This document shows, piece after piece, positions 34,694 through 54,215 of a stretch of DNA of 64,000 bases. A program made the translations under genes and the position numbers. The stretch lies in IMG/VR virus record IMGVR_UViG_3300045988_179151, one strand, 5' to 3'. The notes beneath the pieces are model-generated. The model was not told where the DNA came from. It did not search any database and was given only the letters and a program-made list of their open reading frames with translations. Origin of the DNA: a virus. The first letter of the stretch is position 1, and each line of letters begins with the position of its first letter.

Positions 34694-34700
34694 TTCAGCT

Positions 34701-34730
34701 AAATAGGTGGTTCATTCGAGCCACCTATTT
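34701..34730 (+). terminator. Rho-independent terminator
   Basis: aaataggtgg-ttcattcgag-ccacctattt, a perfect 10-bp stem. Confidence 0.6.
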
Positions 34731-34814: not shown

Positions 34815-34836
34815 TTAATATAATAAAGTAAAGGAA

Positions 34837-36195: not shown

Positions 36196-36197
36196 TA

Positions 36198-36229
36198 AGT
36201 CGAGGTCGTATGACCTTGACTTATTTTTA
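36198..36229 (+). terminator. Rho-independent terminator
   Basis: aagtcgaggtc-gtat-gaccttgactt followed by atttttat. Confidence 0.6.
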
Positions 36230-36245: not shown

Positions 36246-36494
36246 ATGCAACCTAAATTTGATATTGGCGATACAGTTCTCATTCTAGATTTAACCGACG
36301 AACAAAAAAGAAACTACGGGCCCTCATGGGTGCGTGGTATGAATGAATACATAAATCAACAAGCTGTAATCTTAGATAAAACTGAGGTAAGAAACCAATA
36401 CAGATATAAGATCAATTTGGACTCCGGCTTGTATTGGTGGGACTCCGTTAGTTTCCAAAAAGGAATCGCAAACAATCAACTACTATGGTTCTAG
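36246..36494 (+). CDS. Small protein, family A (C-terminal ...NNQLLWF)
   Basis: RBS aaaggaccaaac. C-terminus matches the shared NNQQLW[IFL] motif. Confidence 0.5.
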   Translation: MQPKFDIGDTVLILDLTDEQKRNYGPSWVRGMNEYINQQAVILDKTEVRNQYRYKINLDSGLYWWDSVSFQKGIANNQLLWF

Positions 36495-36506
36495 ACGGGA
36501 TAATAC

Positions 36507-36791
36507 ATGGACAAACCTCAACCAAAATTCAAACCAGGTGATACCGTTCGCATCAAAGATCTACCAGATTTCGAATTGCGCGCTCAATCACATGGTTGGC
36601 TCACAGAGATGGACCAATATATTGGACAAACCTTAACAATCAACCGCGCCATATATCGTCAGAATACAAACGCAACTATTAATCACCGAGACGAATACGT
36701 ATGGGTGTATATCGTCCATGAAAATAACTGGACTTTCGAGGAATACGTCCTCGAACCCTATACAGATAACTGCCAACTTGTTTGGATTTAA
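36507..36791 (+). CDS. Small protein, family A (C-terminal ...NCQLVWI)
   Basis: KFKPGDTVRIKDLPDFELRAQSHGW is shared with the next paralog. Confidence 0.5.
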   Translation: MDKPQPKFKPGDTVRIKDLPDFELRAQSHGWLTEMDQYIGQTLTINRAIYRQNTNATINHRDEYVWVYIVHENNWTFEEYVLEPYTDNCQLVWI

Positions 36792-36808
36792 CTATAAAAA
36801 GGATACCT

Positions 36809-37102
36809 ATGGATAAACCTCAACCAAAATTCAACAGAGGTGATAAGGTTCATATCAAAAATTTACCACATTCTGAACTAGAAACCCAATCACATGGTTG
36901 GAATCATCTTATGGACGGATATATTGGACGAACACTAACAATCAAAGATCCTTCATATCGTTGCAATACAAACATTGAACAAAATGGTCGAAATGAACAA
37001 GTGTGGATATATTTTGTTCGTGAAACCGGCTGGTCTTTCGAAGAACACGTCCTTGAACCACACATAGACAAGATAAACAATCACCAACTTGTTTGGATTT
37101 AA
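36809..37102 (+). CDS. Small protein, family A (C-terminal ...NNHQLVWI)
   Basis: Start MDKPQPKF after RBS aaaaaggatacct. Paralog of 36507. Confidence 0.5.
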   Translation: MDKPQPKFNRGDKVHIKNLPHSELETQSHGWNHLMDGYIGRTLTIKDPSYRCNTNIEQNGRNEQVWIYFVRETGWSFEEHVLEPHIDKINNHQLVWI

Positions 37103-37120
37103 CTATAGAAAGGAAAACCT

Positions 37121-37393
37121 ATGTTCGAAAAATTAATCGCAGTTGTTTCAATTGAAGAAAAACCTGTACCCGAAGAAACAACGCCAACTACAACAGAATT
37201 AGAACCTCAAACCGAACCCGCAACTGAAGACCAATCACTACCTGAACCAACAACTGAAAGTCAAGCTCATATTGACTGGCGACAAAAAAAAGAACAATTC
37301 ATTCAACAATTCTGCCACGGGGAAGAACCAACTGGCGGATTAGCTGAAATTATGGCTGCATCTATTGGCGCTGAACCTGAATTTTACGCATAG
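37121..37393 (+). CDS. Small acidic Pro/Glu/Thr-rich protein (90 aa)
   Basis: RBS agaaaggaaaacct. Low-complexity EPxTEP repeats. Confidence 0.4.
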   Translation: MFEKLIAVVSIEEKPVPEETTPTTTELEPQTEPATEDQSLPEPTTESQAHIDWRQKKEQFIQQFCHGEEPTGGLAEIMAASIGAEPEFYA

Positions 37394-37406
37394 AAAGGAC
37401 AAAATC

Positions 37407-38099
37407 GTGAATATTTTCGATAATTCTATCCGACGCTTCACAAACATCGTCACACCCATTACACGTAAAGAAAAAACAACTAAAGAATTACCTTTAGCTG
37501 TTGGTCTTTACACTCAAAATATCACAACAGAAGCATTCGACTTCTTACAAATGTACTATCACGGTGGCGGTGTTTACACCGCCGTATCGTTTGTTCTTGA
37601 CAACAAACAAGGACTCCGCGTATCCCATGGAAAATTAGTTGAAGACTTATTAAACTATCCGGAACAGCCCCGAAAAGTCAAAAAGTTAGAAGTCTTTGAA
37701 AACCCGATTAACGGAAAACCTGTTGCAACAAATCTACGAATCAAAACGATTGGAACATTTGCTGTAAATGACGATTCCGCATTAAAGGAACAATTAGTTA
37801 CAAACGGTATTGCCATCGCAACCTTTGATAATAAAACGTTCCAACTCATCGACGCTCGCCACAGTGATTATGAACACGAACTTGGCATTTGGTATTCACC
37901 AACAAGCCAATTCACCGAACTCCGCACTGAACCAAATGGGGATTTCATCAAGGCCGTACAAACTGTTCGTTCTCAAGCAAATCAAAACATCAACGTCGAA
38001 CCAGCACATATCGCACAAAAACTATTAACATACACATTCCCAATCCTACAAAAACAGCTCTTTTATGACATTATTCAACCATGTTTAGCGACACGTTAA
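37407..38099 (+). CDS. Hypothetical protein (about 230 aa, probable GTG start)
   Basis: RBS agaaaggacaaaatc before GTG. No motif recognised. Confidence 0.4.
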   Translation: MNIFDNSIRRFTNIVTPITRKEKTTKELPLAVGLYTQNITTEAFDFLQMYYHGGGVYTAVSFVLDNKQGLRVSHGKLVEDLLNYPEQPRKVKKLEVFENPINGKPVATNLRIKTIGTFAVNDDSALKEQLVTNGIAIATFDNKTFQLIDARHSDYEHELGIWYSPTSQFTELRTEPNGDFIKAVQTVRSQANQNINVEPAHIAQKLLTYTFPILQKQLFYDIIQPCLATR

Positions 38100-38114
38100 C
38101 GAAAGGATCTGTAT

Positions 38115-39050
38115 ATGTTTCTCGAAAAAAATACTATCCGAAAACCTGATTCACCAAGGTATCAAAGTACCAAACCTTGGTTATTCAACAACAGTCTTCG
38201 TAGTAAAAACCATTACGTTCCCGAATTCAAAACATTTAATAAAATTGACCATTTGTCATCACACGAAGATATCAAGCAGGGTTATATCTACGCATCCTAT
38301 GATAAATCCACAAAAACATTCACATTCGTGTTTAAACACGCTCCTGGTATTTATCGCGCATACGGTTTCCTAGAAGGGTCTGTTGATATTCCATTACCTG
38401 AACTCTATATTTACGGAAGCCTTAGCTTCGGTCAATCTGAAAACGGCACATTCTCAATTATTGGTGAAGAAATAGCCTTGGGTTCGCCTTGGCTCTCAGT
38501 TCTTCCGCTTAGCAATATTTATACGGATCGTGCAGAACCATGGCCACGCCCCACTACATCAAACGGTGAAACCATCTACTACGCTCCAATGTGTTCCGGT
38601 TCTATTTTATACAATCGAACACGAAACTCAACATCACCTCTTGAAATCATCAACAAATGTGCATCTTATTTCACGGCATTCTTATTGAATCATGGGAATA
38701 CGGACTTAAGCCTATATTCCTATGATACAGACAGTGAGTGTGACGAAGATGATGAAGAGTATCACCCTCGAACAATAACTGGCCGTGAAATCGGACGTAT
38801 TCTTGCAGATAGATCAACCGAAGACTTTACACGACAAGCTACAGCTGAAGCTTATCAAAATTATTGGCTGTTTCTCAATCAAATTAAAGATATGGATATG
38901 CCAAACAACATTTACGCTCGTATTCGAAAACATAATAACTTCGACGATGTCCTTGACGAATTTAATTTATCCATCATAGACGTTAGCGAATATTATGGCG
39001 ATTATCAATCATCAGAAACTCCGCTTATTATGCGACGTAATTACGACTAA
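38115..39050 (+). CDS. Family C protein (311 aa), paralog of 43434 and of the disrupted gene at 39065
   Basis: Shared N-terminus MF.E...PDSPR.QS..PW.FN..LR, plus IPLPELYI and LPLSNIY blocks. Confidence 0.5.
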   Translation: MFLEKNTIRKPDSPRYQSTKPWLFNNSLRSKNHYVPEFKTFNKIDHLSSHEDIKQGYIYASYDKSTKTFTFVFKHAPGIYRAYGFLEGSVDIPLPELYIYGSLSFGQSENGTFSIIGEEIALGSPWLSVLPLSNIYTDRAEPWPRPTTSNGETIYYAPMCSGSILYNRTRNSTSPLEIINKCASYFTAFLLNHGNTDLSLYSYDTDSECDEDDEEYHPRTITGREIGRILADRSTEDFTRQATAEAYQNYWLFLNQIKDMDMPNNIYARIRKHNNFDDVLDEFNLSIIDVSEYYGDYQSSETPLIMRRNYD

Positions 39051-39064
39051 AAGAAAGGAACAAT

Positions 39065-39642
39065 CATGTTCTTAGAAGAAAAAAACTATTAAACACGCAG
39101 ATTCACCTCGATTGATGAGTCTGCGTCCATGGTTGTTCTCAAAATCACTACGAACAACTAATAAATATACAAAAACTGTTAAAAAATCATATATCTACGT
39201 TGATGTTCGTTCTATTGAAGAATCAATAAGACACGGATACATTTATCTGAACCAAACCGGGGATCAATCATTTAATTTTGTTTTCAAAATTGGAAATGGA
39301 ATCTACCAACAATATGGATTTCACGATGGTTCTATCGCAATTCCACTCCCAGATATCTATATTGAAGGCGCTATTGATTTATATTACAGCGATGGCGCGT
39401 ACGAATGCAGACCAGACTTTATCACAATTGGCTCTCCGTTTCTACAACAAATCCCTCTTAGCAACATCTATTACGACTCAATTACTCCGTCATACGCGCC
39501 ACGAGAAAGCGACGGCTTCAAGATCAACTATTCAAACATCTGTTACGGTAATTCCTTCCGTAAGCTTGTTGGTCCGGTTCAAACACCACACGAAGCCATT
39601 AACAAAATTGCATCTATCATTGTTAACTGCTTCTATCAATAG
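39065..39642 (+). pseudogene. N-terminal portion of a family C gene, frameshifted in an A7 run (39080-39086) and truncated by the IS607-like insertion
   Basis: MFLEEKNY* as read. With A6 it reads MFLEEKTIKHADSPRLMSLRPWLF..., matching paralogs MFLEKNTIRKPDSPRYQSTKPWLF. The ORF stops at the IS boundary. Confidence 0.55.
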
Positions 39643-39728
39643 CCGTACATATTGAATTTTATCCATATTTATTGACATTCAATTCATCGTATGATATACT
39701 AAAATAACAAATAAAAAGGAGTACTGTT

Positions 39729-40346
39729 ATGCGAAAATATATGAAATTAAGTCAATATGCAAAAAATTTAGGAATTCACTATAAAACAGCGTGGCGACAC
39801 TGGCATGATAACAAGCTCAATGGATATCAAGATCCCGTAACAGGCACTATTTATGTGTTAGATCAAGATACGAATGTGCCAATAGGTTCTCAAATAAGAG
39901 CGATTTTATATGCACGTGTTTCAAGTACAACTAACAAAGCTTCTTTAGACGGTCAATTGGATAGAATGCGTCAATTTGCCGCTGCAAAAGGATACACTGT
40001 TGTCGATGAACGAAAAGAAATTGCATCTGGTTTAAATGAAAACAGAAAACAATTATTACCGCTTCTTTCTCGACAAGATTATGATGTTTTAATTGTAGAA
40101 CATAAAGACAGATTGAGTCGATTTGGTTCCACATATATTGAACAAGCTTTGATTAATAATGGTGTAAAATTAGAAATTATTAATAAAATTGAAAATAAAG
40201 ATAATGAACTTATTGACGATTTTATTTCTATTATTACAAGCTTTTGTGGTCGCATTTATGGACGCAATCGCAAGACTAAAACACAAGAAATCATAAACCA
40301 ACTAGAATTGACACCTGAAAGGACAAAAGATGAAACTAGCGTATAA
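39729..40346 (+). CDS. tnpA: IS607-family TnpA: MerR-like HTH plus serine recombinase/resolvase catalytic domain
   Basis: MKLSQYAKNLGIHYKTAWRHW is the HTH. AILYARVSSTTNKASLDGQLDRMRQFA is the Ser-recombinase active-site region. Confidence 0.7.
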   Translation: MRKYMKLSQYAKNLGIHYKTAWRHWHDNKLNGYQDPVTGTIYVLDQDTNVPIGSQIRAILYARVSSTTNKASLDGQLDRMRQFAAAKGYTVVDERKEIASGLNENRKQLLPLLSRQDYDVLIVEHKDRLSRFGSTYIEQALINNGVKLEIINKIENKDNELIDDFISIITSFCGRIYGRNRKTKTQEIINQLELTPERTKDETSV

Positions 40347-41931
40347 AATCGCATTTCCTGATGAGTTAATAGACACATATGATTTCTTACAAAAAGAATT
40401 CAATCGCGTCTTATCTGATGAATATATGCGTGAATCTATTTTATCAATTGACAATGAGCTTCATCCTGGCAAATATTGGCCACTATTGCGTGATCTCATA
40501 GGTCAAGATACTCAATATAAATGGAAAACAGATAAACGCTTTCCGTCACCATCTTGGTATTTTTGTGCGTTTGCTGAACAAATTCGTCAAATTCACAAAT
40601 CTCAAAAAGAACAACTAGCTCTTTATGACGCCTTACAACGCTTTGATAATAACGATAACGTCGAATTTTATCAATATTGTATGAATAATAGTATTCCATT
40701 TAATAAAGCAAAAGTTAAAAATCTAAAGCGGTGCGATGAACGCCCAGAATTACCGTATTCAGCTACCTTTGTCCTTGATTTTGCCTTTATCAACAGTCAA
40801 GCCGCTAAAATGGTAGATAATACATTCCACTATGCGATTTTCAACGAAAACAATAAACTCATATGGAATCAGTTACCAATTATCTTTCATCAATCAAGTA
40901 AATATCAACCAGGAATGCGTGTAAGTAAACCTAGATTTTCAAAAGATGAAGACGGTAATTATTACGGAGTAGTCTCTTTTGATTTTGAAGAAAGTGTCAC
41001 ATTTGGTGAAAATATTGCTGCTATTGATTTAGGTAAAATTAATTTATATACATTCGCATACATTCGTCCAGATGGTACTTATAGTGACAATTATTTCATT
41101 CATTCAAAAATGATTGAACGGTTAAAACAAAAACTTGAAACATTATATAATGAAAAAGCAATTTTAATCGAAAAAAATAAGCATGTTGACGAACTTTTCA
41201 AGTATTCTGACTATATTCCTGATGCAAGCCTTAAAAAATGGATACTGCGTCAAGGCAAAATAGAACGTTTATCAACAAAAATAACAGCAATTAAAGATGC
41301 TATCAGTGCTGAAATGAGTGCCGAAATAGTTGAATTGTGTCAAAAACACAATTGTTCTACTCTTTTTATGGAAAATCTTAGTTGGTTAGAATCCGTAGGA
41401 GGTAAGTGGAATCATAGTGTTCAACAAGATACCATTGCCTTAAAATGTGCACAAAACGGTATTGCTGTATATAAAGTAAACGCAAAAAATACCAGCAAAG
41501 CACATCCTATTACAGGCGAATTAGGCAAAGAATTAGGCCGAAATATCATTTGGTCAAATGGCGACATACTTGATAGAGATTTTGTTTCTTGTTTAAACCA
41601 AATTCAACGAAAAGGAAAACGTCGTACATCTCATCGACGAATTGAGACAAAACAAGGAATTCAATTAAAATCTCTCCGAGATAAACATCAGCCAACACCA
41701 AAACGCACTAAGCGACAAACTAGTCGACGTTATGAAAATCTAAAAAAACTAGAAAACTTAAAAAATAAAAACACTTCAAGAACTACACAAATGGTGGTAG
41801 TTCTTCCACGAATTAGCAACGATTATCCAGCAACGTGGTCTTGTGTTGATAAAAAGTCAATACAAGAGGGTAACAATTGCATGAGACGTACAGATGTCTA
41901 TAAAAAGTCATACATGTACATCTGCAATTGA
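40330..41931 (+). CDS. tnpB: IS607-family TnpB-like RuvC nuclease (533 aa), no zinc finger
   Basis: IAAIDLGKINLYTF is RuvC-I; TLFMENLSW is RuvC-II; GDILDRDFVSCLNQIQRKG is RuvC-III-like. Its 3' end is homologous to the noncoding region at 255-345. Confidence 0.6.
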   Translation: MKLAYKIAFPDELIDTYDFLQKEFNRVLSDEYMRESILSIDNELHPGKYWPLLRDLIGQDTQYKWKTDKRFPSPSWYFCAFAEQIRQIHKSQKEQLALYDALQRFDNNDNVEFYQYCMNNSIPFNKAKVKNLKRCDERPELPYSATFVLDFAFINSQAAKMVDNTFHYAIFNENNKLIWNQLPIIFHQSSKYQPGMRVSKPRFSKDEDGNYYGVVSFDFEESVTFGENIAAIDLGKINLYTFAYIRPDGTYSDNYFIHSKMIERLKQKLETLYNEKAILIEKNKHVDELFKYSDYIPDASLKKWILRQGKIERLSTKITAIKDAISAEMSAEIVELCQKHNCSTLFMENLSWLESVGGKWNHSVQQDTIALKCAQNGIAVYKVNAKNTSKAHPITGELGKELGRNIIWSNGDILDRDFVSCLNQIQRKGKRRTSHRRIETKQGIQLKSLRDKHQPTPKRTKRQTSRRYENLKKLENLKNKNTSRTTQMVVVLPRISNDYPATWSCVDKKSIQEGNNCMRRTDVYKKSYMYICN

Positions 41932-42222
41932 ACCATTCAACATTTAGATGTAAACGCTAATGTCTATAAAGAAGCATATGCTCAATATTGGTCACTATTG
42001 AATCTACTATCTCGAAATTATGCACCAAACGAATTGTACCAACAACTCGCCAATTGCAATGAACAACAAATACTCAGAAATCTTCTCAGTGATAACAATA
42101 TTACTCTAGAAGATATCACACAAAACTCAAAATGCATCAATAATAATTACGTATGGAAACCTGGTGATGATGATGACGATGAAGACGATTACGACGACGA
42201 AGATTATGATGATGAATGGTAA
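41932..42222 (+). pseudogene. C-terminal remnant of the IS-disrupted family C gene, ending in a poly-acidic tail
   Basis: In frame immediately after the tnpB stop: ...VYKEAYAQYWSLLNLL... aligns with paralogs (AYQNYWLFLNQI / HYTRYWILLNYL). Ends GDDDDDEDDYDDEDYDDEW. Confidence 0.5.
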
Positions 42223-42264
42223 CCAAAACAAATGGCACCACACTCAAAACCAAACCTAGAAAGG

Positions 42265-42921
42265 AACTACCTAATGACTGAAAAAGAACTCTTATATCAA
42301 ATCACCTCAACCACTATCGATCAGCTAATCGAATTAGAAACACCAACATGCACCTCAATTGTAGAAGCTACAGAGAACCAAAAAAGTCTTTATAATAAAA
42401 TCATTCCATTTCTAATTGAAAACAGCCATCTTGATGAAGTATTTGCGACAATCGTAGAAGGATCCACTGAAAAATTCATCTTGCCACATAATCTCAACGA
42501 TTTCATTAAGTTGTATGATGATACCTATCTACATCCAATCACCATCAACGGCGAAACCATTCTACCGCAAACGGCTCGAATGCTTAATAACAACCAAATT
42601 ATGGACGTTCGTGCCTACGAAGAAGAACGACTCGAACAACTTCTCCCACAAATGCTCGAAGCTTACCCATTGTTCATCATCAAATTATTGAACGACAAAC
42701 CAGACTTCGATCAACCCCAAATCAAAGAAGCAATTGATGCATATATTCAAAAATACTACATTAAACCGCTTCTCGACGTGATTCCTGATGCAATCGTCAC
42801 CTACGAAATCAACGACCTCGTTCATTTCACCGTCGATTTGTCAAAAGTAGAAAACCCAGAAATCGCTGCATTGTCTATTCCTAAAGGGAATTTCCACACA
42901 TATACTATTACAATTATTTGA
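42265..42921 (+). CDS. Hypothetical protein (about 218 aa)
   Basis: Start MTEKELLYQ after RBS ctagaaaggaacta. Confidence 0.4.
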   Translation, partial: NYLMTEKELLYQITSTTIDQLIELETPTCTSIVEATENQKSLYNKIIPFLIENSHLDEVFATIVEGSTEKFILPHNLNDFIKLYDDTYLHPITINGETILPQTARMLNNNQIMDVRAYEEERLEQLLPQMLEAYPLFIIKLLNDKPDFDQPQIKEAIDAYIQKYYIKPLLDVIPDAIVTYEINDLVHFTVDLSKVENPEIAALSIPKGNFHTYTITII

Positions 42922-42929
42922 GGTATTCC

Positions 42930-43397
42930 ATGTTAGATCAACTTAAAAATTTTAATCAAGCAACACGAAAACCAGGTGTCACTCATATATCACAAGAAAT
43001 CATGATTAGTGACCTTCCAACCATTTTCTCACAAAAACTCATCCTCTTGCCACTATCAGAGACATCGCTACTTTACTCCGCTGAAGATTTTCCAGAACAA
43101 TACGAGCCTGTCCACTATAATGAGACAAATAATGTTGTTACGCATTACATCCTTAAATCGGGTGATGAAGGTGACTCAACATCAATCACGTCATACCTTA
43201 TTGAATTCCTCGAAACTGGAAAAGTAACCCCTCGAAAATCAAACGGTTCAACGAACATTCACAACATTCCACTTCCAGCCTATCCAATTGAAGAATACAA
43301 TGGTGAATATGTTCCATGTGTTCTATTGAAAAACAATAAACGTGCGATTATCGAGCCAAACGGCAACATTATCGAAGGTGTAGAGTTCGCCCAATAG
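42930..43397 (+). CDS. Hypothetical protein (about 155 aa)
   Basis: Start MLDQLKNF after RBS tgaggtattcc. Confidence 0.4.
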   Translation: MLDQLKNFNQATRKPGVTHISQEIMISDLPTIFSQKLILLPLSETSLLYSAEDFPEQYEPVHYNETNNVVTHYILKSGDEGDSTSITSYLIEFLETGKVTPRKSNGSTNIHNIPLPAYPIEEYNGEYVPCVLLKNNKRAIIEPNGNIIEGVEFAQ

Positions 43398-43433
43398 GCG
43401 ACTCTCACCACTTTATATAGAAAGGATTCATTC

Positions 43434-44294
43434 ATGTTTTACGAACAACAATTTGTCCATAACCCAGACTCTCCTCGAAAACAATCACCAATCCCATGGG
43501 CTTTTAACAAAACACTGCGCACCGGTCACAAACATATCAACACACTTAAAAGCCAAATTCATATCGATCATCGAGATATTGAAGAAGAGATCGCGCAAGG
43601 ATTTGTTTATCTTCAAACGTCAGACAATAAATACATTGACTTCCTCTACAAAATTCCAGCGGGAACCTACACGATTTACGGATTTCGTCGAGGTTCTATT
43701 GACGTTCCACTACCTGAATTATACGTTGCAGGACGTTTGAAATTTAACAACAATTCCCTTGTATACCATAACATTCGTCTAGGCTCACAATATCTACCAC
43801 TACTACCTCTTTCAAATATTTATAACTACGATGATTCTGAATCTTTTGAAATTGATACCTCAAATGGTCAGCCAATCTATTATATGAAAATGTGTACAGG
43901 ATCTGCACTTCGAGATCTTATCGGCGAAGTCAACAATCTTATGGAAGCTGCTAACAAACTTCAAACTATCCTTATTCCGTTCTTCCTTCGATATGGAAAC
44001 AACGATTTACGATTATGTCCTTTAGAAGCAGACTCTTTAAATTCAATCACTGCTCGATCCATTTCATATTTCCTTCAAGACAAACTCACTATTGCATCCG
44101 ATCATTATACACGCTATTGGATTCTACTAAATTATCTACATCAAAAATATGACGCCAATACTATCTACCGAAAACTTGGCTCTATGAATCAGCGACATGA
44201 GGTTTTTGACGAATTTGGTATTACAGCATCTGAATTACAAGAACGTTATCGAGAATATCAATCATCTGCAAATAAAAATCGAATTATTAATTAG
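43434..44294 (+). CDS. Family C protein (286 aa)
   Basis: MFYEQQFVHNPDSPRKQSPIPWAFNKTLR... paralog of 38115. RBS agaaaggattcattc. Confidence 0.5.
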   Translation: MFYEQQFVHNPDSPRKQSPIPWAFNKTLRTGHKHINTLKSQIHIDHRDIEEEIAQGFVYLQTSDNKYIDFLYKIPAGTYTIYGFRRGSIDVPLPELYVAGRLKFNNNSLVYHNIRLGSQYLPLLPLSNIYNYDDSESFEIDTSNGQPIYYMKMCTGSALRDLIGEVNNLMEAANKLQTILIPFFLRYGNNDLRLCPLEADSLNSITARSISYFLQDKLTIASDHYTRYWILLNYLHQKYDANTIYRKLGSMNQRHEVFDEFGITASELQERYREYQSSANKNRIIN

Positions 44295-44422
44295 AAGCAC
44301 TGGATATTTATCTAGTGCTTTTTTACAAGTAACAGGCAAACGCAGTTATAAAGTAACGCGACGAAGTCTTCTTGCCTATTTATTTTCAAATATAGTAAAT
44401 TTCGGATAATATTTATGTTTTC

Positions 44423-44925
44423 TGACACCACTTTCAGAAAAACGGTGTCAAAAGTGGTGTCAGAGAAAAAGCTTTTAAATCAACGTTTTCGGCACATTCT
44501 TTATTTCTTGACACCACTTTTTTTAAAAGTGGTGTCAGGTATAAATGTAATAATATCAATAGTTTAGACGATTCTGACACCACTTTTTCAATATTTTGTA
44601 AAAAACTTTTTATTTTAAAATGCGAAAAAAAAATATAACTTGTGTTATAAAAAAATATAGCGTTTATATTTTGAACTGAAATCGCAAAAAATGCCAAAAA
44701 GTGGTGTCAGAAACCCCTTTTTCGAGCGCAAACCCGCATCGTTGAGCGATTTTCTCTGACACCACTTTTGACACCACTTTTTTTTCGACAGACACCAAAA
44801 ACGGTGTCGACCTAGTCCGAAACACAAGTAAACGCTTAGAGCCTCAACGCGTTTCACGATTTTCACGCGCATTTTTCTCTGACACCACTTTTGTCATTTC
44901 TGACACCACTTTTTTTCAGACTCAA
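44423..44925. repeat. Iteron cluster: about 12 copies of TGACACCACTTT(T) in both orientations, several as closely spaced inverted pairs
   Basis: Seen at 44423, 44449(rc), 44506, 44529(rc), 44574, 44699(rc), 44757, 44770, 44800(variant acggtgtc), 44880, 44903 and others. Confidence 0.8.
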
Positions 44926-44929
44926 AATT

Positions 44930-45160
44930 TGCACTTTTTCGCCCTTTTCATCGAAAACCCAAGAACTACAATCGATTGCGATAATTTTTTTTGACTTTAG
45001 CTTGAAATTATTATATAATAATTATATAAGATTTAGAAGAAAATCTCCAAAAATAGCCCTATATAAATGTGGTTTTTCATCTAATATTTATGCTTTTTAT
45101 ATAACGCGCATAAATAAATTTATACTATATTTAAAAATGTACAAAAAAAAAGAAAGAAGG
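44930..45160. promoter_or_regulatory. AT-rich region with AT palindrome (aattattatataataatt); putative DNA-unwinding element and promoter next to the iterons
   Basis: Very AT-rich. Lies between the iteron cluster and the RHH/primase genes. Confidence 0.4.
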
Positions 45161-45165
45161 ACTCT

Positions 45166-45345
45166 ATGCCACATCCATTACGAAATATCCACGGTGAACA
45201 CACATTCACACGTCTTCGCTTAGAAACCGCTATGAAGCGTGAACTAGACTCATTGGCGAAACAAGATAATCGTTCGACAACGTACATCATCAACGAAGCC
45301 ATTGCAGAATATTTAGAACGTCATTCTAATTATCAACGTAAATAA
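45166..45345 (+). CDS. Ribbon-helix-helix (CopG/Arc/MetJ-like) DNA-binding protein (59 aa)
   Basis: MPHPLRNIHGEHTFTRLRLETAMKRELDSLAKQDNRSTTYIINEAIAEYLERHSNYQRK has a beta-strand followed by two helices, typical of RHH. RBS agaaagaagg. Not in the ORF track because it is under 60 aa. Confidence 0.55.
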   Translation: MPHPLRNIHGEHTFTRLRLETAMKRELDSLAKQDNRSTTYIINEAIAEYLERHSNYQRK

Positions 45346-45356
45346 GGCGGTATCTC

Positions 45357-47066
45357 ATGGTAACAATTAAACCAAATAAAGCTTTTTTAGAGCGCATGGC
45401 GAGATTGTACGATCGTGAACTCGACCCGACTATTTTTGACTTTTTCGATTATATGCTCAACAACGAGATGAACTCTATCGACATCAATACACAAGAAGCC
45501 TTTCTCGAACATATCGTCGCACTTAAAAGTAATCTCACACGAATTCATATCACGAATGCCAACGTGCGAGCCGGGCGTATGACGACAACTTTAGACGCAT
45601 CTAAATTCAAAATGCAACAAAACGAGATCGCACTCATCGTACATACCTACCTGCCAATTGTTCGCTTAAAACTAACCAATGACGCAAAAACGAGTGATCT
45701 AGCCGTGTTCAACTATTTCGGCAATAACGCCGGTACTTATCAACTTGATACATCCCTTATCGATGACTTGATCTACATTTTGCAACCAAACGTGTCCGTC
45801 TCGGCACTGAAATCCTATCGCAACGCCATCGCGTCACTTGCCAAACACAAGACCGAAGACAAAAACAAAAACTTGATCGTCGTCGGAAACGGCATCTACA
45901 ACAAACTCACCCGCGAGCTCGTGCCCTTTGATCCGTCGTATATCACAACTACAAAAATTGCCACGAACTACAACCCCGACGCTCAACTGGTGACGATTCA
46001 TAATGACGATGACAACACCGATTGGGACGTTGAGTCCTGGTTAAAAGACTTGGCAGGAGCACTTAGTAATAATTTCGACAATGACACATATCAATTGTTC
46101 TGGCAAATCATCGCGGGCGTAACTAATCCGGATCAGGTCAACGCTAAAGCCGTGTTCTTTTACTCATCTGTTGGGAATAACGGTAAGGGAACCTATGGCC
46201 AACTTCTTAAAAATCTGGTCGGTCAAGATAATTACTCATCGCTACCCATACCCGCCTTTAAACATGAATACTTAAAAGAAAAACTGCTAGGAAAAACGTT
46301 AAATATTGCTGATGAGAATCCTGTCGATGTCTATGTCGATGACGTGCAAGATTTCAAGGCAATGATTACGGGCGATGATATTATGATTAACCGTAAACAT
46401 GAAAAACCAATCGTTGCTCGTATTAAAGCCATCAACATTCAAATGTTAAATGGACTACCTAAGACTCGTGACAAGTCTGATTCGTTTTATCGTCGATTAA
46501 TTATCGTTCCTTTTCTTTATTCTTTCACGAATAACGGAGAAAGACCCTATATCAAGCATGACTATATGTATCGTCCTGAAGTTCTTGAATATGTCTTGAA
46601 AAAAGCGTTAGAAATGCCGTCTTTCTCAGAATTTGTTACGCCTGCGCGTTCCGCACAAGCTTTACTGCAATATAAAGAAGATAACAATACGGCACTTGAA
46701 TTCTGGAACGAGTTTGAATGGCAATTCCAGTGGGACTTTATCCCACCCGCGTTCTTATACGACTTATATGTAGCATGGTTTCAAGAAGAACACGGTGGTG
46801 AACACGGTTCTTGTTTCTCTAAGAAGACATTTTTAGCGCACATTCAAAATCATCTACAAAATGACCCTATTTGGGAATTTAAAGCCACCCGAGCCACTTG
46901 CCCGAACCCCTTGCAAGTTTCCGGACGAATGGATGCGGACGAGCCACTCATCACGCAATACAATTTGACGCGCTTTATGGATAGCTCTTATAAAGGCTCA
47001 AACCCGTTACTGACGCGAGCATTCACCCGTATGGACAGAGGTCGTGGCATTATACGAAAAGCATAA
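45357..47066 (+). CDS. Phage/plasmid primase-helicase, D5/P4-type C-terminal NTPase domain (569 aa)
   Basis: VFFYSSVGNNGKGTYGQLL is Walker A; LNIADENP is Walker B-like. The architecture matches P4-alpha/D5-type replicative primase-helicases. Confidence 0.55.
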   Translation: MVTIKPNKAFLERMARLYDRELDPTIFDFFDYMLNNEMNSIDINTQEAFLEHIVALKSNLTRIHITNANVRAGRMTTTLDASKFKMQQNEIALIVHTYLPIVRLKLTNDAKTSDLAVFNYFGNNAGTYQLDTSLIDDLIYILQPNVSVSALKSYRNAIASLAKHKTEDKNKNLIVVGNGIYNKLTRELVPFDPSYITTTKIATNYNPDAQLVTIHNDDDNTDWDVESWLKDLAGALSNNFDNDTYQLFWQIIAGVTNPDQVNAKAVFFYSSVGNNGKGTYGQLLKNLVGQDNYSSLPIPAFKHEYLKEKLLGKTLNIADENPVDVYVDDVQDFKAMITGDDIMINRKHEKPIVARIKAINIQMLNGLPKTRDKSDSFYRRLIIVPFLYSFTNNGERPYIKHDYMYRPEVLEYVLKKALEMPSFSEFVTPARSAQALLQYKEDNNTALEFWNEFEWQFQWDFIPPAFLYDLYVAWFQEEHGGEHGSCFSKKTFLAHIQNHLQNDPIWEFKATRATCPNPLQVSGRMDADEPLITQYNLTRFMDSSYKGSNPLLTRAFTRMDRGRGIIRKA

Positions 47067-47067
47067 A

Positions 47068-47092
47068 AGGCACGAAATCGTGCCGTTTTTCT
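47068..47092 (+). terminator. Rho-independent terminator
   Basis: ggcacga-aat-cgtgcc followed by ttttt. Confidence 0.65.
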
Positions 47093-47153
47093 ATGCTCTT
47101 AAACTGTTCTCTTGAAGAGAACTCGTGAACGATAACTCTAGAAAGGACATCAA

Positions 47154-47570
47154 ATGGAAAACAACTTCGAAGATTTTATAAAATATCGCGCAGAATTGCG
47201 TTATAAACACTTCAACAACAATAAATATAAATCTTTAACTGAATTTTGTAACGAGACAGTGACTTGGAATCTATGGGACACTAATTTCTTTAGACTTCTT
47301 TTCAAAATACCCTGCACCACTCCCGATATGCAATCATCAAAATTTGAAGCATTTCTAGAAAATGAACTCGCCCACCCAACTGTTGATTGGATTAACATAT
47401 TCGATTACATCGCCGCCCTTGAAAAACATCCATATTTTAACGAATATCTTGATTCATACATAAACGATTCCGGCTCATTTATACGAGACCCACTTTTCTG
47501 GTCGATTTTGAATAAATATAAAGATGCACTGATCGGACAAATCTCAAATAATCAACAACTGTGGTTCTAG
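47154..47570 (+). CDS. Small protein, family B (138 aa, C-terminal ...NNQQLWF)
   Basis: RBS agaaaggacatcaa. Shares the EL RYK(H/Y)F...DWI..(Y/F)DY... blocks with 47586, 48683, 49491 and 49920. Confidence 0.5.
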   Translation: MENNFEDFIKYRAELRYKHFNNNKYKSLTEFCNETVTWNLWDTNFFRLLFKIPCTTPDMQSSKFEAFLENELAHPTVDWINIFDYIAALEKHPYFNEYLDSYINDSGSFIRDPLFWSILNKYKDALIGQISNNQQLWF

Positions 47571-47585
47571 AAAGGGCTTTATATA

Positions 47586-48035
47586 ATGACAACATTATCT
47601 TCTACGGACTATTTCGCTATTCGAAAAGAACTTCGTGAAAAATATTTCATGAACAACGACTTCACACAATTAACCGACATCCCCACATTTCAACGATGTC
47701 TAACGGCCCATGCCGATGCACATATAGGCGAACTGTCAGAACCTTATTTTATTATCAACTATATAGTTACGCCTGAACAAAAAGAAGCGCTAGATGTAAA
47801 AATACCATATACTAATCTCAAAAAACTAAGATTAATATTATCAAACCCAAATCAATACTTGAACCCAAAAATCAATATTCAAACCGTGTACGATTATCTT
47901 CAAGAATTAAATCAATATGATACCATCGATTGGCTTAGCAATCGAGCCGTCAATATTCTGACAGTATTTGATGAACATGGACGTGATTTATCAATATCAA
48001 CCAAACCTAACAACAATCAACTACTATGGCTCTAG
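47586..48035 (+). CDS. Small protein, family B (149 aa, C-terminal ...NNNQLLWL)
   Basis: Paralog. The stop TAG is followed directly by AAAGGA, the RBS of the next gene. Confidence 0.5.
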   Translation: MTTLSSTDYFAIRKELREKYFMNNDFTQLTDIPTFQRCLTAHADAHIGELSEPYFIINYIVTPEQKEALDVKIPYTNLKKLRLILSNPNQYLNPKINIQTVYDYLQELNQYDTIDWLSNRAVNILTVFDEHGRDLSISTKPNNNQLLWL

Positions 48036-48179
48036 AAAGGATATTATATGCCTAATAAAAAAATTATCAAATCAAACAAAGCCATTGTCGCATCCTATCG
48101 CGATGCATTCATATCTAAACAATGCACACGGTCACAAAACAATGATACTTAATCATGACATAAAAAGGAACCTGGAACT

Positions 48180-48671
48180 ATGTCTACAAATAAACAATTA
48201 CAACTCGCTTTAGAAATTGCAACAATGGCTCACAAAAATGTACAACGTCGAAACGGCGATCCTTATATCTTTCATGCCTTGCGCGTAGCTAACAACTCAA
48301 CATATATTCGCACAAAAACACAAAAAGCCGCAGGTATTTTGCACGACGTCATTGAAGATACGCCATTTAACGAAGAATTTTTGCGCCAACAAGGAATCGA
48401 TGAAACTATACTTAAAGTTTTACGCTTTTTAACGCACGATAAAGAATCAACTACCTACGAAGACTATATCGCTCACATCTGTCAAAACATTGATGCTATG
48501 CTTGTCAAACTTGCAGATTTAGCCGATAATTTAGATCAAGGGACCCTTCCTGTTTTAACTGAACGCGACATCGAACGATTCAGCATATATAAAAATGCAC
48601 AACAAACGATTATGCAAACACTCGCTCAAAAACACCCCACCATCTTCCAAGAAATTCTGCAAAAAATGTAA
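48180..48671 (+). CDS. HD-domain small alarmone hydrolase (RelA/SpoT-type (p)ppGpp hydrolase domain only, 163 aa)
   Basis: GDPYIFHALRVA...ILHDVIEDT...MLVKLADLADNL matches the RSH hydrolase-domain motifs (HD, ED, LVKLADRLHNM). Confidence 0.6.
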   Translation: MSTNKQLQLALEIATMAHKNVQRRNGDPYIFHALRVANNSTYIRTKTQKAAGILHDVIEDTPFNEEFLRQQGIDETILKVLRFLTHDKESTTYEDYIAHICQNIDAMLVKLADLADNLDQGTLPVLTERDIERFSIYKNAQQTIMQTLAQKHPTIFQEILQKM

Positions 48672-48682
48672 AGGACCATAAC

Positions 48683-49099
48683 ATGTCAATATTCGAAGAA
48701 CAAATTAGATTATCCGAACAGTTACGTTATCAATACTTTGACAGAGATGGTTTCACAAAAATATCTGATAATACTCGACCCGTCGAGTATATCGAAAGAT
48801 ATGACTCGATTGGATATTTAACCGAACTTACATTCTTCCATGCATATCTTGATTATAACTATAAAACAGATATGAGCCCCAATCATAAATCAACAGCGAG
48901 CGATATAATAAATCTAATCAAAACAAAAAAAGCAAATTCCCATATTGATTGGATAGCCCTCTATGATTACCTGGATAAATTAAAACAAACTCGATGGCGT
49001 AGAGTCATTGACAATGATATCAATGCCGCCCTTGAAGTGTTTGAACCGTTTCGGGGTGAATTAGCCAGCGTTAAAAATAACCAGTCACTTTGGATTTAA
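48683..49099 (+). CDS. Small protein, family B (138 aa, C-terminal ...NNQSLWI)
   Basis: Paralog (IDWIALYDYLDKLKQTRW...FEPFRGELA). Confidence 0.5.
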   Translation: MSIFEEQIRLSEQLRYQYFDRDGFTKISDNTRPVEYIERYDSIGYLTELTFFHAYLDYNYKTDMSPNHKSTASDIINLIKTKKANSHIDWIALYDYLDKLKQTRWRRVIDNDINAALEVFEPFRGELASVKNNQSLWI

Positions 49100-49126
49100 C
49101 AATAACTATAAAAAAGGATAATCAAC

Positions 49127-49474
49127 ATGAACACACAAACAAAACTACAACAATACCTCACAGGTCACGATACAAGTGTTCTTGAAGAACGACTTGAACT
49201 CACACCTGATCTCGGATTTAATTACAAAATCCATTCCGAAGAATCCCTCTATTTCTTAAAAACACCAAGTCTTCAATCCGTTAAACTAATCACAGAAACA
49301 AAAACTGAAAAGGTCACAAAATATTATATCAATATTTTCCAAAAGAATGGCGGTTATATTGCATTTATTGGCGAAACAGACGACCCAACCTCATCCAAAT
49401 TACAAACGACCGTTTACGAAGCCGATTCCTATAATACACTCATCAAAGAAATCTACTACTTAATTTACAAATAA
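49127..49474 (+). CDS. Hypothetical protein (115 aa)
   Basis: RBS aaaaaggataatcaac. No family motif. Confidence 0.4.
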   Translation: MNTQTKLQQYLTGHDTSVLEERLELTPDLGFNYKIHSEESLYFLKTPSLQSVKLITETKTEKVTKYYINIFQKNGGYIAFIGETDDPTSSKLQTTVYEADSYNTLIKEIYYLIYK

Positions 49475-49490
49475 AGAAAGGCGTTAAAAT

Positions 49491-49907
49491 ATGTTAACCT
49501 CCAATGATTATATTGAATTGTCTGACGAATTGCGCTATAAATATCTTGATGTAACTGGATTCGCAACCATATCCGATAATACTAAATTCACTGATTACAA
49601 TGAAGACGGTAACATAATTGGAAATATTACAGAGCGTGCATTCTTGTATTGTTATCTCAATTATGACTATGAAATCGATAAAGACGCCGATTATGACCCA
49701 ACCACAGACGAAGTTATAAGATTAATCAAAACTAGAAAAACAGATCCTTATATCAATTGGACAGCGCTCTATGACTACTTCGATGAGTTAAAACAAACGC
49801 AATGGAGCAAGGCCATTAGTGAGGATATCGACAACGCTCTTGAAGTATTTGAACCATTTCGAGGTGAATTAGCCGGCATTAAAAACAACCAACAACTATG
49901 GATTTAG
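49491..49907 (+). CDS. Small protein, family B (138 aa, C-terminal ...NNQQLWI)
   Basis: Closest paralog of 48683 (INWTALYDYFDELKQTQW...FEPFRGELAGIKNNQQLWI). Confidence 0.5.
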   Translation: MLTSNDYIELSDELRYKYLDVTGFATISDNTKFTDYNEDGNIIGNITERAFLYCYLNYDYEIDKDADYDPTTDEVIRLIKTRKTDPYINWTALYDYFDELKQTQWSKAISEDIDNALEVFEPFRGELAGIKNNQQLWI

Positions 49908-49919
49908 AAAAGGAAGCCT

Positions 49920-50318
49920 ATGTTCAATATTGAAACTACCTACGACCCCATACAAATTACCGAAAAATATAGAAAAATAAGAATCAAATATTTTTCAAAC
50001 CCTAACTATAAAACACTTGCCGATACTGGCTGGCACTTGGACAATCTCGAAAGTCTTTACGAATTCAATTTTTTAAGCGTTCTCATTTTCGGTGGATGGA
50101 ATACCGGTTTTGCGAGAACAACAGAAGAAGTCTGTCATGCTATCAAAAATCATAAAAACTATAAAAACATCAATTGGCGAGCCTACATCGAATATATCGA
50201 CGAAGTTCAAAAAACATTGCCCGTTCGTGAACCGTACGAACTTGAAATCTACAAAGCGGTTAATAGTATCCGTTCTGACTTCGGAATTATCTCAAACAGT
50301 CAACAACTTTGGATTTAG
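49920..50318 (+). CDS. Small protein, family B (132 aa, C-terminal ...NSQQLWI)
   Basis: Paralog (INWRAYIEYIDEVQKT...). Confidence 0.5.
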   Translation: MFNIETTYDPIQITEKYRKIRIKYFSNPNYKTLADTGWHLDNLESLYEFNFLSVLIFGGWNTGFARTTEEVCHAIKNHKNYKNINWRAYIEYIDEVQKTLPVREPYELEIYKAVNSIRSDFGIISNSQQLWI

Positions 50319-54212: not shown

Positions 54213-54215
54213 AAC

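Follow-up and report, generated by a model that had tools for sequence, protein, structure and literature searches.

Eight small proteins belonging to two families of different predicted fold end in a common C-terminal peptide in the 64-kb window, the whole stretch of DNA from an uncultivated large phage that was analyzed (64,000 nucleotides). This tail is probably a short docking or targeting motif, read by one lineage-specific and presumably phage-encoded, putative receptor. In a six-frame scan covering every stop codon of the window, N-x-Q-x-[LV]-W-[IFL]-stop was found at the end of exactly 8 ORFs, all on the + strand, bearing out the common C-terminal peptide that the initial annotation had described. 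The tail was confined to families A (n=3) and B (n=5), where 8/8 members carried it (Table 1). The annotated formula had captured the tail itself but was slightly off in register; the correct consensus is N-[NSCH]-Q-[QLS]-[LV]-W-[IFL]. The only other [LV]W[IF]-stop ends in the window belonged to three short, non-genic ORFs (22-44 aa) without the N/Q positions. No published description or curated family was found for these tail-bearing proteins.

Table 1. Tail-bearing genes of the window and neighboring features.
Feature	Coordinates	Strand	Description
ThiF/E1-like gene	33244-33948	+	Pfam ThiF, E 1.5e-14; resembles PRTRC ThiF, E 9e-19, below curated cut-off
217-aa protein gene	34040-34693	+	Between ThiF and JAB genes
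tRNA-Leu	34731-34814	+	Upstream of JAMM/JAB-like gene
JAMM/JAB-like protein gene	34837-36195	+	Resembles PRTRC protein A, E 1e-3, below curated cut-off
Terminator-like hairpin, JAB gene to family A array	36194-36225	+	14-bp stem, then T run; consensus scan only
Family A gene 1	36246-36494	+	82 aa; predicted SH3-like barrel + tail ANNQLLWF; tail codons 36471-36491; family A HMM, E 1.9e-31
Family A gene 2	36507-36791	+	94 aa; predicted SH3-like barrel + tail DNCQLVWI
Family A gene 3	36809-37102	+	97 aa from ATG 36809; tail NNHQLVWI
Terminator-like hairpin, D5/P4-type primase gene to family B array	47069-47084	+	Consensus scan only
Family B gene 1	47154-47570	+	138 aa; predicted all-alpha domain + tail SNNQQLWF; family B HMM, E 3.4e-29
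Family B gene 2	47586-48035	+	149 aa; tail NNNQLLWL; family B HMM
Family B gene 3	48683-49099	+	138 aa; tail KNNQSLWI; family B HMM
Family B gene 4	49491-49907	+	138 aa; tail KNNQQLWI; member used for structure model
Family B gene 5	49920-50318	+	132 aa; tail SNSQQLWI; family B HMM

Family A gene 3 almost certainly starts at the ATG, judging from sequence comparison, and not at the TTG 36782 of the ORF list (106 aa), because the length of 97 aa matches that of its homologues P0050 and P0051. The product is identical to P0051 (97 aa, N-terminus MDKPQPKF), a ribosome-binding site, AAAAAGGA, lies upstream, and the TTG start would make the gene overlap gene 2. The tail is neither limited to family B nor lost in relatives: family A homologues in related genomes keep it, and P0063 and P0064, homologues of gene 1, retain NNQLLWL. 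Identity of the other family B paralogues to the first member is just 20-24%, but the tail residues N, Q, L and W do not vary among them. In the wider family B (46 matches among 1.84 billion representatives), a short aromatic or hydrophobic C-terminal tail is nearly always present.

Across the unique tail proteins of the window's lineage (n=52), N(-7) is conserved in 51/52, Q(-5) in 52/52 and W(-2) in 52/52. At the same time, all degenerate codons of the tail vary synonymously (AAC/AAT, CAA/CAG, six Leu codons, ATT/ATC/ATA). Because these residues are near-invariant while synonymous codons vary, the tail is under purifying selection as a peptide, not as DNA. This disagrees with the initial proposal that a DNA cassette of ~25 nt is reused at every gene junction: AAAGG directly follows the stop codon in just 4/8 tail genes (a fifth, ending at 50318, has TAG-TAG-AAAGG). 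Moreover, TAR-A(1-3)-GG occurs upstream of 19/66 genes in this genome, most of the 19 without a preceding tail gene. Thus, stop plus AAAGGA is the ordinary ribosome-binding context of this genome.

The alternative that a junction cassette is selected for translational coupling or recombination, with the peptide as by-product, would draw on the enrichment of TAG among stop codons (41/52 tail genes versus 7/39 other genes), on AAAGG directly behind the stop in roughly 31/52 tail genes, and on the existence of chimeric paralogues. P0050 is a chimera of family A genes 2 and 3, and P0062 of genes 1 and 2, so the tandem paralogues do recombine. However, the crossovers fall within the coding regions and not at a gene junction, TAGAAAGGA is the generic ribosome-binding context and also precedes genes without an upstream tail gene, the amino acids are invariant although every degenerate tail codon varies synonymously, and sister lineages combine the same gene architecture with different tails. 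We therefore regard selection on the junction DNA as scarcely credible. The other option raised initially, a common C-terminal peptide tag, is strongly supported by protein-level selection, low model confidence of the tail, conservation in homologues and cross-lineage covariation over both folds.

As suggested initially, the two families otherwise differ in fold. AlphaFold2 models predict an SH3-like barrel for family A and a six-helix all-alpha domain without known relative for family B. The modeled domains reached pLDDT values of 88.5 and 84.9, and the last residues of the same two models scored 55 and 38. In neither model is the tail confidently packed against the fold, and its low confidence in both families is consistent with a flexible tail. 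The structural matches were generic SH3-like folds. The proteins of both families are acidic (pI 4.1-6.4). Each of the eight would thus be a small, acidic protein in three parts: a folded domain, a short polar linker and a flexible C-terminal peptide. This seven-residue peptide, N-x-Q-x-hydrophobic-W-hydrophobic-COOH, would act as a short linear motif, its free hydrophobic C-terminus fitting the pocket of one putative receptor. All members of both families could in this way be brought to a common partner or place, whatever their domains do. In ~250 kb of related sequence examined, only these two families carry the tail, and it is therefore not a broadly used tag.

The decisive evidence comes from comparison: the sharing of one tail by families A and B recurs in three related lineages of uncultivated large phages, with a different tail in each. 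In L042 (285-kb contig), F[CV]LY ends 13 family B and 4 HMM-confirmed double-SH3 family A genes, as well as a fifth family A gene (2822-3208) assigned by BLASTP similarity to L042 5380-5772. The tail [YF]-x-A-F ends 10 family A and 5 family B genes in L095 (179-kb contig), and [YF]-x-[PAG]-[YF] ends 8 family A and 3 family B genes in L096. In a further lineage, L044, seen for family B only, Y-x-T-F ends 7 ORFs, 6 of them family B by HMM. L095_10001 (..VYDAF) is 72% identical to L096_10001 (..VYNPY), above its identity to any paralogue in its own genome; cross-lineage pairs of family A at 62% and 53% identity are likewise closer than own-genome paralogues and have different tails. Since orthologues up to 72% identical differ in their tails, the tail tracks the genome rather than gene orthology. 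By this comparison it evolves in concert over two folds and is replaced as a set between related phages.

The uniformity of the tail within a genome and its wholesale replacement between related phages suggest a putative receptor that is specific to the lineage and, most likely, encoded by the phage; both its binding of the tail and its phage origin are what we infer from this pattern. A host receptor that varies between hosts may serve instead, if the lineages infect different hosts. The same pattern would also follow, with no receptor gene needed, if identical peptides paired with each other as a beta-zipper (NNQQ resembling GNNQQNY of Sup35) and the A and B proteins co-assembled without a separate receptor. 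The Q/N-rich and aromatic composition of the tail fits such pairing, but the tails of the other lineages have 4-5 residues and are not Q/N-rich, and the use of the extreme C-terminus alone is left unexplained, making homotypic assembly highly improbable. Known Gram-positive signaling peptides are cleaved from the C-terminus of a precursor, and lineage-specific, hydrophobic C-terminal peptides of 5-7 residues that diverge quickly between related phages could be released peptides of the arbitrium, Phr, PapR or XIP type, forming 'pherotypes'. However, the precursors would be folded domains of 80-150 aa that lack a signal peptide and are conserved as families in their own right, the surroundings of the arrays showed no recognizable TPR/RRNPP-type receptor gene, and a signal would not need many copies over two folds. 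There is next to no likelihood that the tails are such signals.

The family A array is immediately preceded by a + strand block (33244-36195) comprising the ThiF, 217-aa protein, tRNA-Leu and JAB genes, and a JAMM motif, HSHNKMDAFASGTD, is visible in the JAB-like protein. The three protein genes might tentatively be considered a candidate receptor module. The 217-aa/JAB pair is also found upstream of the A/B arrays in L095 (within ~0.7 kb) and L096 (within ~0.2 kb), and in relatives L003-L006 the ThiF and 217-aa genes are separated by a family B-like gene whose product ends in QSMWY. These arrangements favor the possibility that the A/B proteins are C-terminally activated and conjugated in the manner of CD-NTases with Cap2/Cap3, or that they dock as adaptors or substrates on this machinery or on its putative Ubl, which would be the domain at the N-terminus of the 217-aa protein. 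A similar flexible C-terminal handle on a non-beta-grasp protein (cGAS) is read by the E1-E2 enzyme Cap2 and the JAB enzyme Cap3 in CBASS type II (PMC10097602). However, E1 conjugation in that system needs a C-terminal Gly or Ala and is abolished by Ser, Val, Arg or Trp (PMC10097602), whereas the tails analyzed here end in I, L, F or Y. The eight proteins were rejected as E1 (ThiF)/JAB substrates on this defining feature, the terminal Gly/Ala. Unlike Cap2, the system here has no E2 domain, and its ThiF and JAB are PRTRC-like with scores under the family cut-offs. No E1 or JAB gene lies beside the L042 and L044 arrays or the window's own family B array. In addition, JAB is 57-58% identical overall, and much more so in its catalytic core, between lineages with completely different tails, and the Bacillus jumbo phage vB_BceM_WH1 has a JAB-ThiF pair but no family A/B genes in the surrounding 16.5-kb stretch. 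The adjacency may merely reflect inherited gene order, and involvement of the E1/JAB machinery is unlikely.

The surroundings of the arrays consist of replication and nucleotide-metabolism genes, not head genes. The hairpin downstream of the JAB gene suggests that the family A array may form its own or an attenuated transcription unit. A primase-helicase gene precedes the family B array, in line with recruitment to, or blocking of, the host DnaN or a phage clamp by a QL[SD]LF/PIP-box type sliding-clamp or replisome-hub motif. Such motifs (including PIP boxes and the T4 gp43, gp33 and gp55 tails that bind gp45) are short, often C-terminal and hydrophobic, and serve one hub; in T4, C-terminal clamp-binding tails are common to unrelated proteins. 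With Q(-5) and a terminal pair of hydrophobic residues, the tail is similar to the clamp-binding pentapeptide of bacteria, and QLLWF and QLVWI conform to Q-hydrophobic-x-hydrophobic-hydrophobic. However, motif position 2 is a non-hydrophobic Q in 41/52 tails, and the sister lineages lack any Q and have the small residues A, P or T at -2 (YDAF, YNPY, YTTF); on these features a host beta-clamp motif was rejected. The pocket of the host beta-clamp is highly conserved, and lineage-specific motifs are therefore not expected. Large arrays of 8 to >20 diverging paralogues are not a trait of clamp partners and would be unexpected for replisome parts, and Pfam and PHROG scans of the window's larger ORFs recognized no clamp gene. 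Clamp binding is thus very unlikely.

The tail, as a hydrophobic C-terminus exposed by small proteins of early type, could also be a degron or protease-docking peptide (for ClpXP, ClpCP, Lon, HslUV or a tail-specific protease) that times the removal of early proteins or makes them adaptors handing their targets over to a protease. We give this very little credence: known degrons tolerate much variation, whereas N, Q and W are invariant here in 51-52/52; the pockets of host AAA+ proteases are conserved, leaving the wholesale replacement of the tail between related phages unexplained; and the structural matches are generic SH3-like ones.

For a docking or targeting tail, the closest precedent is the capsid-targeting sequence (CTS) common to diverse internal proteins of phage T4. 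The CTS is a ~10-residue leader at the N-terminus, which attaches to the scaffolding core and is removed by the prohead protease. Like the proteins described here, the T4 internal proteins (IPI, IPII, IPIII and the hyperplastic IP locus) are small, unrelated or fast-diverging phage proteins with only one short terminal peptide in common. The CTS delivers them all to one phage-encoded receptor, and the cargo consists of anti-defence effectors (PMC3012670). The concrete version that we favor, at a probability well below even, is that the tail is a comparable address tag, loading small effectors of a diversified set into a single structure or machine of the phage, for instance the virion for co-injection. 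Counting against virion loading, which is hypothetical here, are the acidity of the proteins, the position of the arrays away from head genes, and the tag itself, a free C-terminus with no evident cleavage site as opposed to a cleaved N-terminal leader.

Encapsulin cargo-loading peptides are likewise short, disordered, C-terminal after a flexible linker and common to unrelated cargo, docking in a pocket inside a shell of the HK97 fold, the capsid fold of tailed phages. They differ in their G-S-L-type consensus and in that cargo genes adjoin the shell gene, whereas no shell or capsid gene was identified beside the arrays. In the poxvirus ankyrin/PRANC and BTB-Kelch families, the target-binding part diversifies and the C-terminal module, which docks on one common machine, stays constant. 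In these multigene families of eukaryotic viruses, docking on host Skp1 is through a folded F-box-like domain, as compared to a peptide of 5-7 residues and a putative receptor here.

The protein encoded within the B array that had been taken for an HD-domain alarmone hydrolase indeed resembles the RelA/SpoT hydrolase domain, matching TIGR00691 (E 2e-16) over the first 126 of 687 model positions only, with a score far under the full-length curated cut-off. Its position suggests that it may be functionally linked to the array, possibly under a theme of host takeover or anti-defence.

A six-frame scan of every stop codon in the 64-kb window found exactly eight ORFs ending in N-x-Q-x-[LV]-W-[IFL]-stop, all on the plus strand: the three family A and the five family B genes (see Table). 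The initial annotation had proposed a C-terminal peptide shared by two families; this is confirmed, and the case is much stronger than could be seen at first reading. For the third family A gene, the correct start should be ATG 36809 and not the overlapping TTG 36782; its product then has 97 aa, as the database homologues do. The family B proteins, although only 20-24% identical to their first member, have a tail with invariant N, Q, L and W, and the three family A proteins (30-35% identical to the first) keep the tail as well. Tail statistics were derived from 52 unique proteins of the window's lineage (lineage 1), taken from the window and related metagenomic loci. Counting from the C-terminus, Q(-5) and W(-2) are present in 52/52 tails and N(-7) in 51/52; position -3 is a conserved hydrophobic site (L or V in 49/52), position -4 is Q in 41 and L in just 8, and all 52 tails end in I, L, F, Y or V. 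In all loci read, the lineage-1 tail is limited to family A and B proteins (72 ORFs, with one chance exception of 47 aa).

The tail codons vary synonymously at each degenerate position (AAC/AAT, CAA/CAG, six Leu codons, ATT/ATC/ATA). Fixed amino acids combined with variable synonymous codons indicate that selection acts on the tail peptide. The junction of a stop codon with AAAGGA, noted earlier as a candidate for a selected and reused DNA cassette, does exist; TAG is the stop of 41/52 tail genes versus 7/39 other genes. However, the element TAR-A(1-3)-GG precedes 19 of 66 genes, most of them without a tail gene upstream, and is a general ribosome-binding context of the window genome. In view of this context and the synonymous variation, no DNA cassette is reused at the array junctions. 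Most neighbouring array genes are spaced by 12-18 nt, forming tightly packed operons. At three of five junctions the next gene is in frame across a single TAG (stop-to-next-ATG gap 12-15 nt), where read-through would join adjacent paralogues; this proportion is not above chance. TAG recoding of stop codons was rejected, long genes being intact under the standard code. Among the family A homologues, P0050 is a chimera of a gene-2 N-terminal half and a gene-3 C-terminal half (crossover at ..TLTI), P0062 joins a gene-1 N-terminus to a gene-2 C-terminus, and P0059 resembles gene 3 but has an internal deletion. The family A array is therefore still undergoing unequal recombination in the population.

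Table. Coordinates of the arrays, the neighbouring module and other features in the window and in further loci, mostly of related phages (L-numbers).
Feature	Sequence	Coordinates	Strand	Description
Family A array	window	36246-37102	+	3 genes, 82-97 aa
Family B array	window	47154-50318	+	5 genes, 132-149 aa
Tail-bearing array	L042			285-kb contig; unbroken run of ~18 genes, all ending F[CV]LY
Tail-bearing array	L095			179-kb contig; 10 family A and 5 family B genes interleaved, all ending [YF]-x-A-F
Tail-bearing array	L096			8 family A and 3 family B genes ending [YF]-x-[PAG]-[YF]
Tail-bearing array	L044			7 ORFs ending Y-x-T-F, 6/7 family B by HMM
In-frame TAG junctions	window	36494/36507; 47570/47586; 49907/49920		
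Tail-less family B member	L042	14217-14624		ends ..QFKTN
Tail-less family B member	L043	12523-12930		ends ..QFEAN
Tail-less family B member	L044	9588-9989		ends ..KKIIK
ThiF/217-aa/JAMM-JAB module	window	33244-36195		ThiF/E1-like gene 33244-33948; JAMM/JAB-like gene 34837-36195
Same module	L003	6264-9704		
Same module	L095	6085-8213		
Same module	L096	985-3076		
Same module	L094	7093-10187		
HD protein	window	48180-48671		inside family B array
Third paralogous family	window	38115-39050; 39112-39642; 43434-44294		
IS607-like pair	window	39729-40346; 40330-41931		serine recombinase; TnpB
Other TnpB/transposase copies	window	14782-15723		
	window	19438-20982	-	
	window	58157-59038	-	
Iteron-like repeats	window	44416-44917		
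Ribbon-helix-helix gene	window	45166-45345		
D5/P4-type primase-helicase	window	45357-47066		
NAD-salvage block	window	53499-57313		
NAD-salvage block	L044	14362-18259		
Pnkp-like fusion	window	16076-18505		809 aa
G5/LPXTG protein	window	4103-8863 (and 463-4155)		1586 aa
G5/MucBP protein	L096	16063-18627		854 aa
NrdD fragments	window	61290-62153		
NrdD fragments	L097	11408-16266		contig 61.3-66.2 kb

The two families had been described as different folds, and AlphaFold2 models agree. Family B was modeled as six helices (pLDDT 88.5, pTM 0.85) and family A as an SH3-like barrel (pLDDT 84.9). Confidence falls at the C-terminus of both, to a pLDDT of 55 in the last residue block of family B and below 50 in the last five residues (QLVWI) of family A (block mean 38). 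Thus, one tail is carried by two predicted, unrelated folds and is probably flexible in each. All family A and B proteins are acidic (pI 4.1-6.4); their N-termini differ, and only the extreme C-terminus is common to both. Family B had no significant profile or fold match in Pfam, PHROGs, NCBIfam, PADLOC or the PDB, and family A had merely weak SH3-like or unknown-function matches in Pfam, PHROGs, NCBIfam and PADLOC. A BFVD search with family B returned one look-alike, an uncharacterised gut-phage protein. No family B domain fusions hinting at function were found, just fragments and spurious repeat proteins. Family B is a widespread domain of large gut-type phages, without known structural or functional relative.

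An exhaustive profile search of 1.84 billion representatives yielded 46 family B relatives. Close relatives end in NNQQ[LVI]W[IL], and more distant ones have short aromatic tails of other kinds (FVLY, FCLY, Y[TVM]TF, YDAF, YNPY, YDMI or F[IV]G[FY]). A locus search with the FVLY subgroup gave only distant single-copy relatives with the ends NDFW or QDIF. What the loci around these relatives showed was decisive: each of four related large-phage lineages has an array with a tail of its own (L042, L044, L095 and L096; see Table). The L042 run comprises 13 family B genes, four HMM-confirmed double-SH3 family A members and a fifth family A member assigned by its BLASTP likeness to another of these; the L044 array is placed relative to PnuC and NAMPT like the family B array of the window. 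After trimming of the tails, many proteins were nearer to a gene of another lineage than to paralogues in their own genome. The proteins L095_10001 and L096_10001 are 72% identical, yet each carries the tail of its own genome, as do the members of two cross-lineage family A pairs (62% and 53% identity). The tail thus goes with the genome and not with the gene, and its replacement was concerted across two folds. Tail-less family B members occur at array edges or away from arrays; possibly these are decaying copies, or members freed from a shared receptor.

A tail that is uniform per genome, present on two unrelated folds and switched wholesale between sister genomes bears the hallmarks of a short linear docking or targeting motif with a single co-evolving receptor. 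We consider it probable, in general terms, that the tail docks to one receptor, which would read a free, probably disordered hydrophobic C-terminus and change together with it. A degron, a homotypic zipper, a signalling peptide and a DNA cassette are each less consistent with the pattern. Signalling propeptides of the RRNPP/arbitrium type are further opposed by the 82-149-aa folded domains of families A and B, which lack a hydrophobic N-terminal signal, and no TPR or RRNPP matches were found among the genes neighbouring the arrays. The tail might also be read as a bacterial beta-clamp binding motif (QL[SD]LF), whose position 1 Gln and hydrophobic end fit the Q(-5) found in 52/52 tails and the terminal residue. 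Position 2 of the clamp motif should, however, be hydrophobic (usually Leu) with position 3 variable, whereas 41/52 tails have Q at position 2 and the conserved hydrophobic residue is at -3; the register does not fit. Moreover, the clamp pocket is conserved and a constant motif would be expected, while the sister tails F[CV]LY, Y-x-A-F, Y-x-P-Y and Y-x-T-F lack the Gln. Conserved host hubs (the clamp, AAA+ proteases, SSB partners) would not require tail switches; we therefore infer that the putative receptor is phage-encoded, or at least strongly lineage-specific.

A phage-encoded candidate lies directly 5' of the family A array, where a ThiF/E1-like gene, a gene for a 217-aa protein and a JAMM/JAB-like gene form a module for which the tails could serve as handles, with JAB or ThiF as the receptor. 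The 217aa-JAB pair recurs upstream of the arrays in L095 and L096, and the cluster of the relatives L003-L006 encloses a family B-like gene that ends in QSMWY. This E1/JAB neighbourhood is present for the family A array of the window and in L003-L006, L095 and L096, but no E1 or JAB gene adjoins the family B array of the window or the arrays of L042 and L044. In the Bacillus jumbo phage vB_BceM_WH1, the 16.5 kb read around its JAB-ThiF pair contain neither family A nor family B genes. Lineages whose tails are unrelated have JAB proteins with 57-58% overall identity and far higher identity over the catalytic core. As to the tails being conjugated themselves, E1 conjugation requires a terminal Gly or Ala, and in CBASS a terminal Ser, Val, Arg or Trp abolishes conjugation (PMC10097602), whereas the tails end in I, L, F, Y or V. 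Nor is the beta-grasp fold of a modifier present in the SH3-like family A or the all-alpha family B. JAB or ThiF as the receptor was set aside, being weakened by the JAB conservation, the Gly/Ala requirement and vB_BceM_WH1.

The module is similar to the uncharacterised PRTRC cassette, with ThiF matching at E 9e-19 and protein A at E 1e-3, each score falling short of its curated cut-off. Within the 217-aa protein, conservation is high over the first ~58 residues (KINIIGAPE...LILSAAAGSKGAL), which could form a small ubiquitin-like domain that ends in or carries a Gly-rich processing site. JAB-ThiF pairs also occur in cultured Bacillus jumbo phages (vB_BceM_WH1 gp214-216, Edson and KLEB27-3), and that of vB_BceM_WH1 adjoins annotated virion structural proteins. 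Literature searches on phage E1/JAB systems, PRTRC function and PDB entries 9EGB-9EGD returned nothing relevant.

A more specific form of the docking explanation is that the tail is an address tag for the virion or its cargo, the concrete model that we favour, although only tentatively and at a low probability. Equally speculative is the full proposal, in which a private, fast-evolving C-terminal address peptide might link a diversifying set of small effectors built on two unrelated folds (8 to >20 genes per genome) to one phage-encoded machine, either the capsid interior or the PRTRC-like E1/Ubl/JAB module, tag and receptor switching together. The clade using it would be uncultivated large Gram-positive phages. 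In the capsid-interior version, anti-defence cargo would be co-injected by means of a C-terminal analogue of the T4 CTS. As with T4 cargo, one short terminal peptide is found on diverse small phage proteins, here of two folds; in contrast, the T4 CTS is an N-terminal leader removed by the prohead protease, whereas the tail is the extreme C-terminus. Encapsulin cargo-loading peptides are a C-terminal analogue of such address tags. The acidity of the proteins, their early-type gene neighbourhood and the C-terminal rather than N-terminal position count against the virion version. In the E1/Ubl/JAB version, a ubiquitin-like system would for the first time have a substrate-adaptor repertoire encoded by a phage, namely families A and B.

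The tail carriers are one SH3-like and one structurally novel family in an uncultivated large-phage clade. The feature appears not to have been described before and to present the principle of a shared terminal address peptide in a new form; a literature search on paralogue arrays with shared C-termini found nothing relevant. Concerted tail replacement on two folds, and even between orthologues sharing as much as 72% identity, would be an exceptionally clear viral case of motif-receptor co-evolution, and the receptor should be findable through covariation once complete genomes are compared. Were the tail a receptor-specific address tag, the co-targeted effectors of a phage could be listed from sequence alone, as all ORFs with the lineage tail. 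It would also offer a natural, portable tag of 5-7 residues for sending cargo to a phage structure or machine, with NNQQLWI, DTFCLY, VYDAF, VYNPY and NYTTF as orthogonal variants.

The window makes up the first 64 kb of an ENA metagenome contig of 105,864 bp (ERZ27263377 k119_39668); ~71 kb of its phage and ~20-kb pieces of relatives were read. The genes present suggest a large phage that infects an anaerobic Gram-positive host: they encode an LPXTG/G5 surface protein, a Pnkp-like protein, a D5/P4-type primase nearest to Streptococcus and Lactococcus elements, PnuC, NAMPT, a NUDIX protein, anaerobic NrdD and one tRNA. In NCBI nr the family A homologues carry the label 'Caudoviricetes sp.', and their contigs are 174-254 kb long. 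No close DNA relatives of the window were found in phage and plasmid collections, and tblastn with one family B protein against 50,697 phage records gave no matches. Searched as a degenerate DNA pattern (chance expectation ~2e-11 per site by our estimate), NNQ[QL][LV]W[IFLM]-stop had just 4 single matches in IMG/VR and 27 in GTDB genomes. These matches are at chance level, indicating that the window lineage is absent there, and no host was identified.

Several other features were observed. Enclosed by the family B array is the HD protein, a stand-alone small alarmone hydrolase-like protein that matches the RelA/SpoT N-terminal (p)ppGpp-hydrolase domain (TIGR00691, E 2e-16, residues 10-127) and has a Pfam HD_4 score 0.3 bits under the gathering threshold. 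Just 3' of this array lies an NAD-salvage block of PnuC, a 215-aa NtrR-like protein, a PRPP-synthase-like protein and NAMPT. It is conserved in the sister lineage L044 and resembles phage NAD-reconstitution (anti-depletion) pathways. Between the arrays, a third paralogous family, without the tail and with the N-terminal motif PDSPR.QS..PW.FN..LR, is broken up by an IS607-like pair; more TnpB/transposase copies lie elsewhere in the window. At least 12 copies of the iteron-like repeat TCTGACACCACTTTT, in both orientations, are located in a ~870-bp non-coding stretch 5' of the ribbon-helix-helix and primase-helicase genes, probably a replication origin or regulatory region. The Pnkp-like protein is a fusion of polynucleotide kinase, phosphatase and T4 Rnl1-type RNA ligase, likely a tRNA-repair counter-defence enzyme. 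The surface protein on this phage-like contig has six G5 domains and an LPXTG cell-wall anchor, and a G5/MucBP protein is found on the related phage contig L096; a sortase-anchored adhesin is unusual phage cargo. Finally, NrdD, the anaerobic ribonucleotide reductase, is broken up over ~5 kb into four or more separate ORF fragments, which suggests introns, inteins or homing elements; an NrdG-like radical SAM protein follows.
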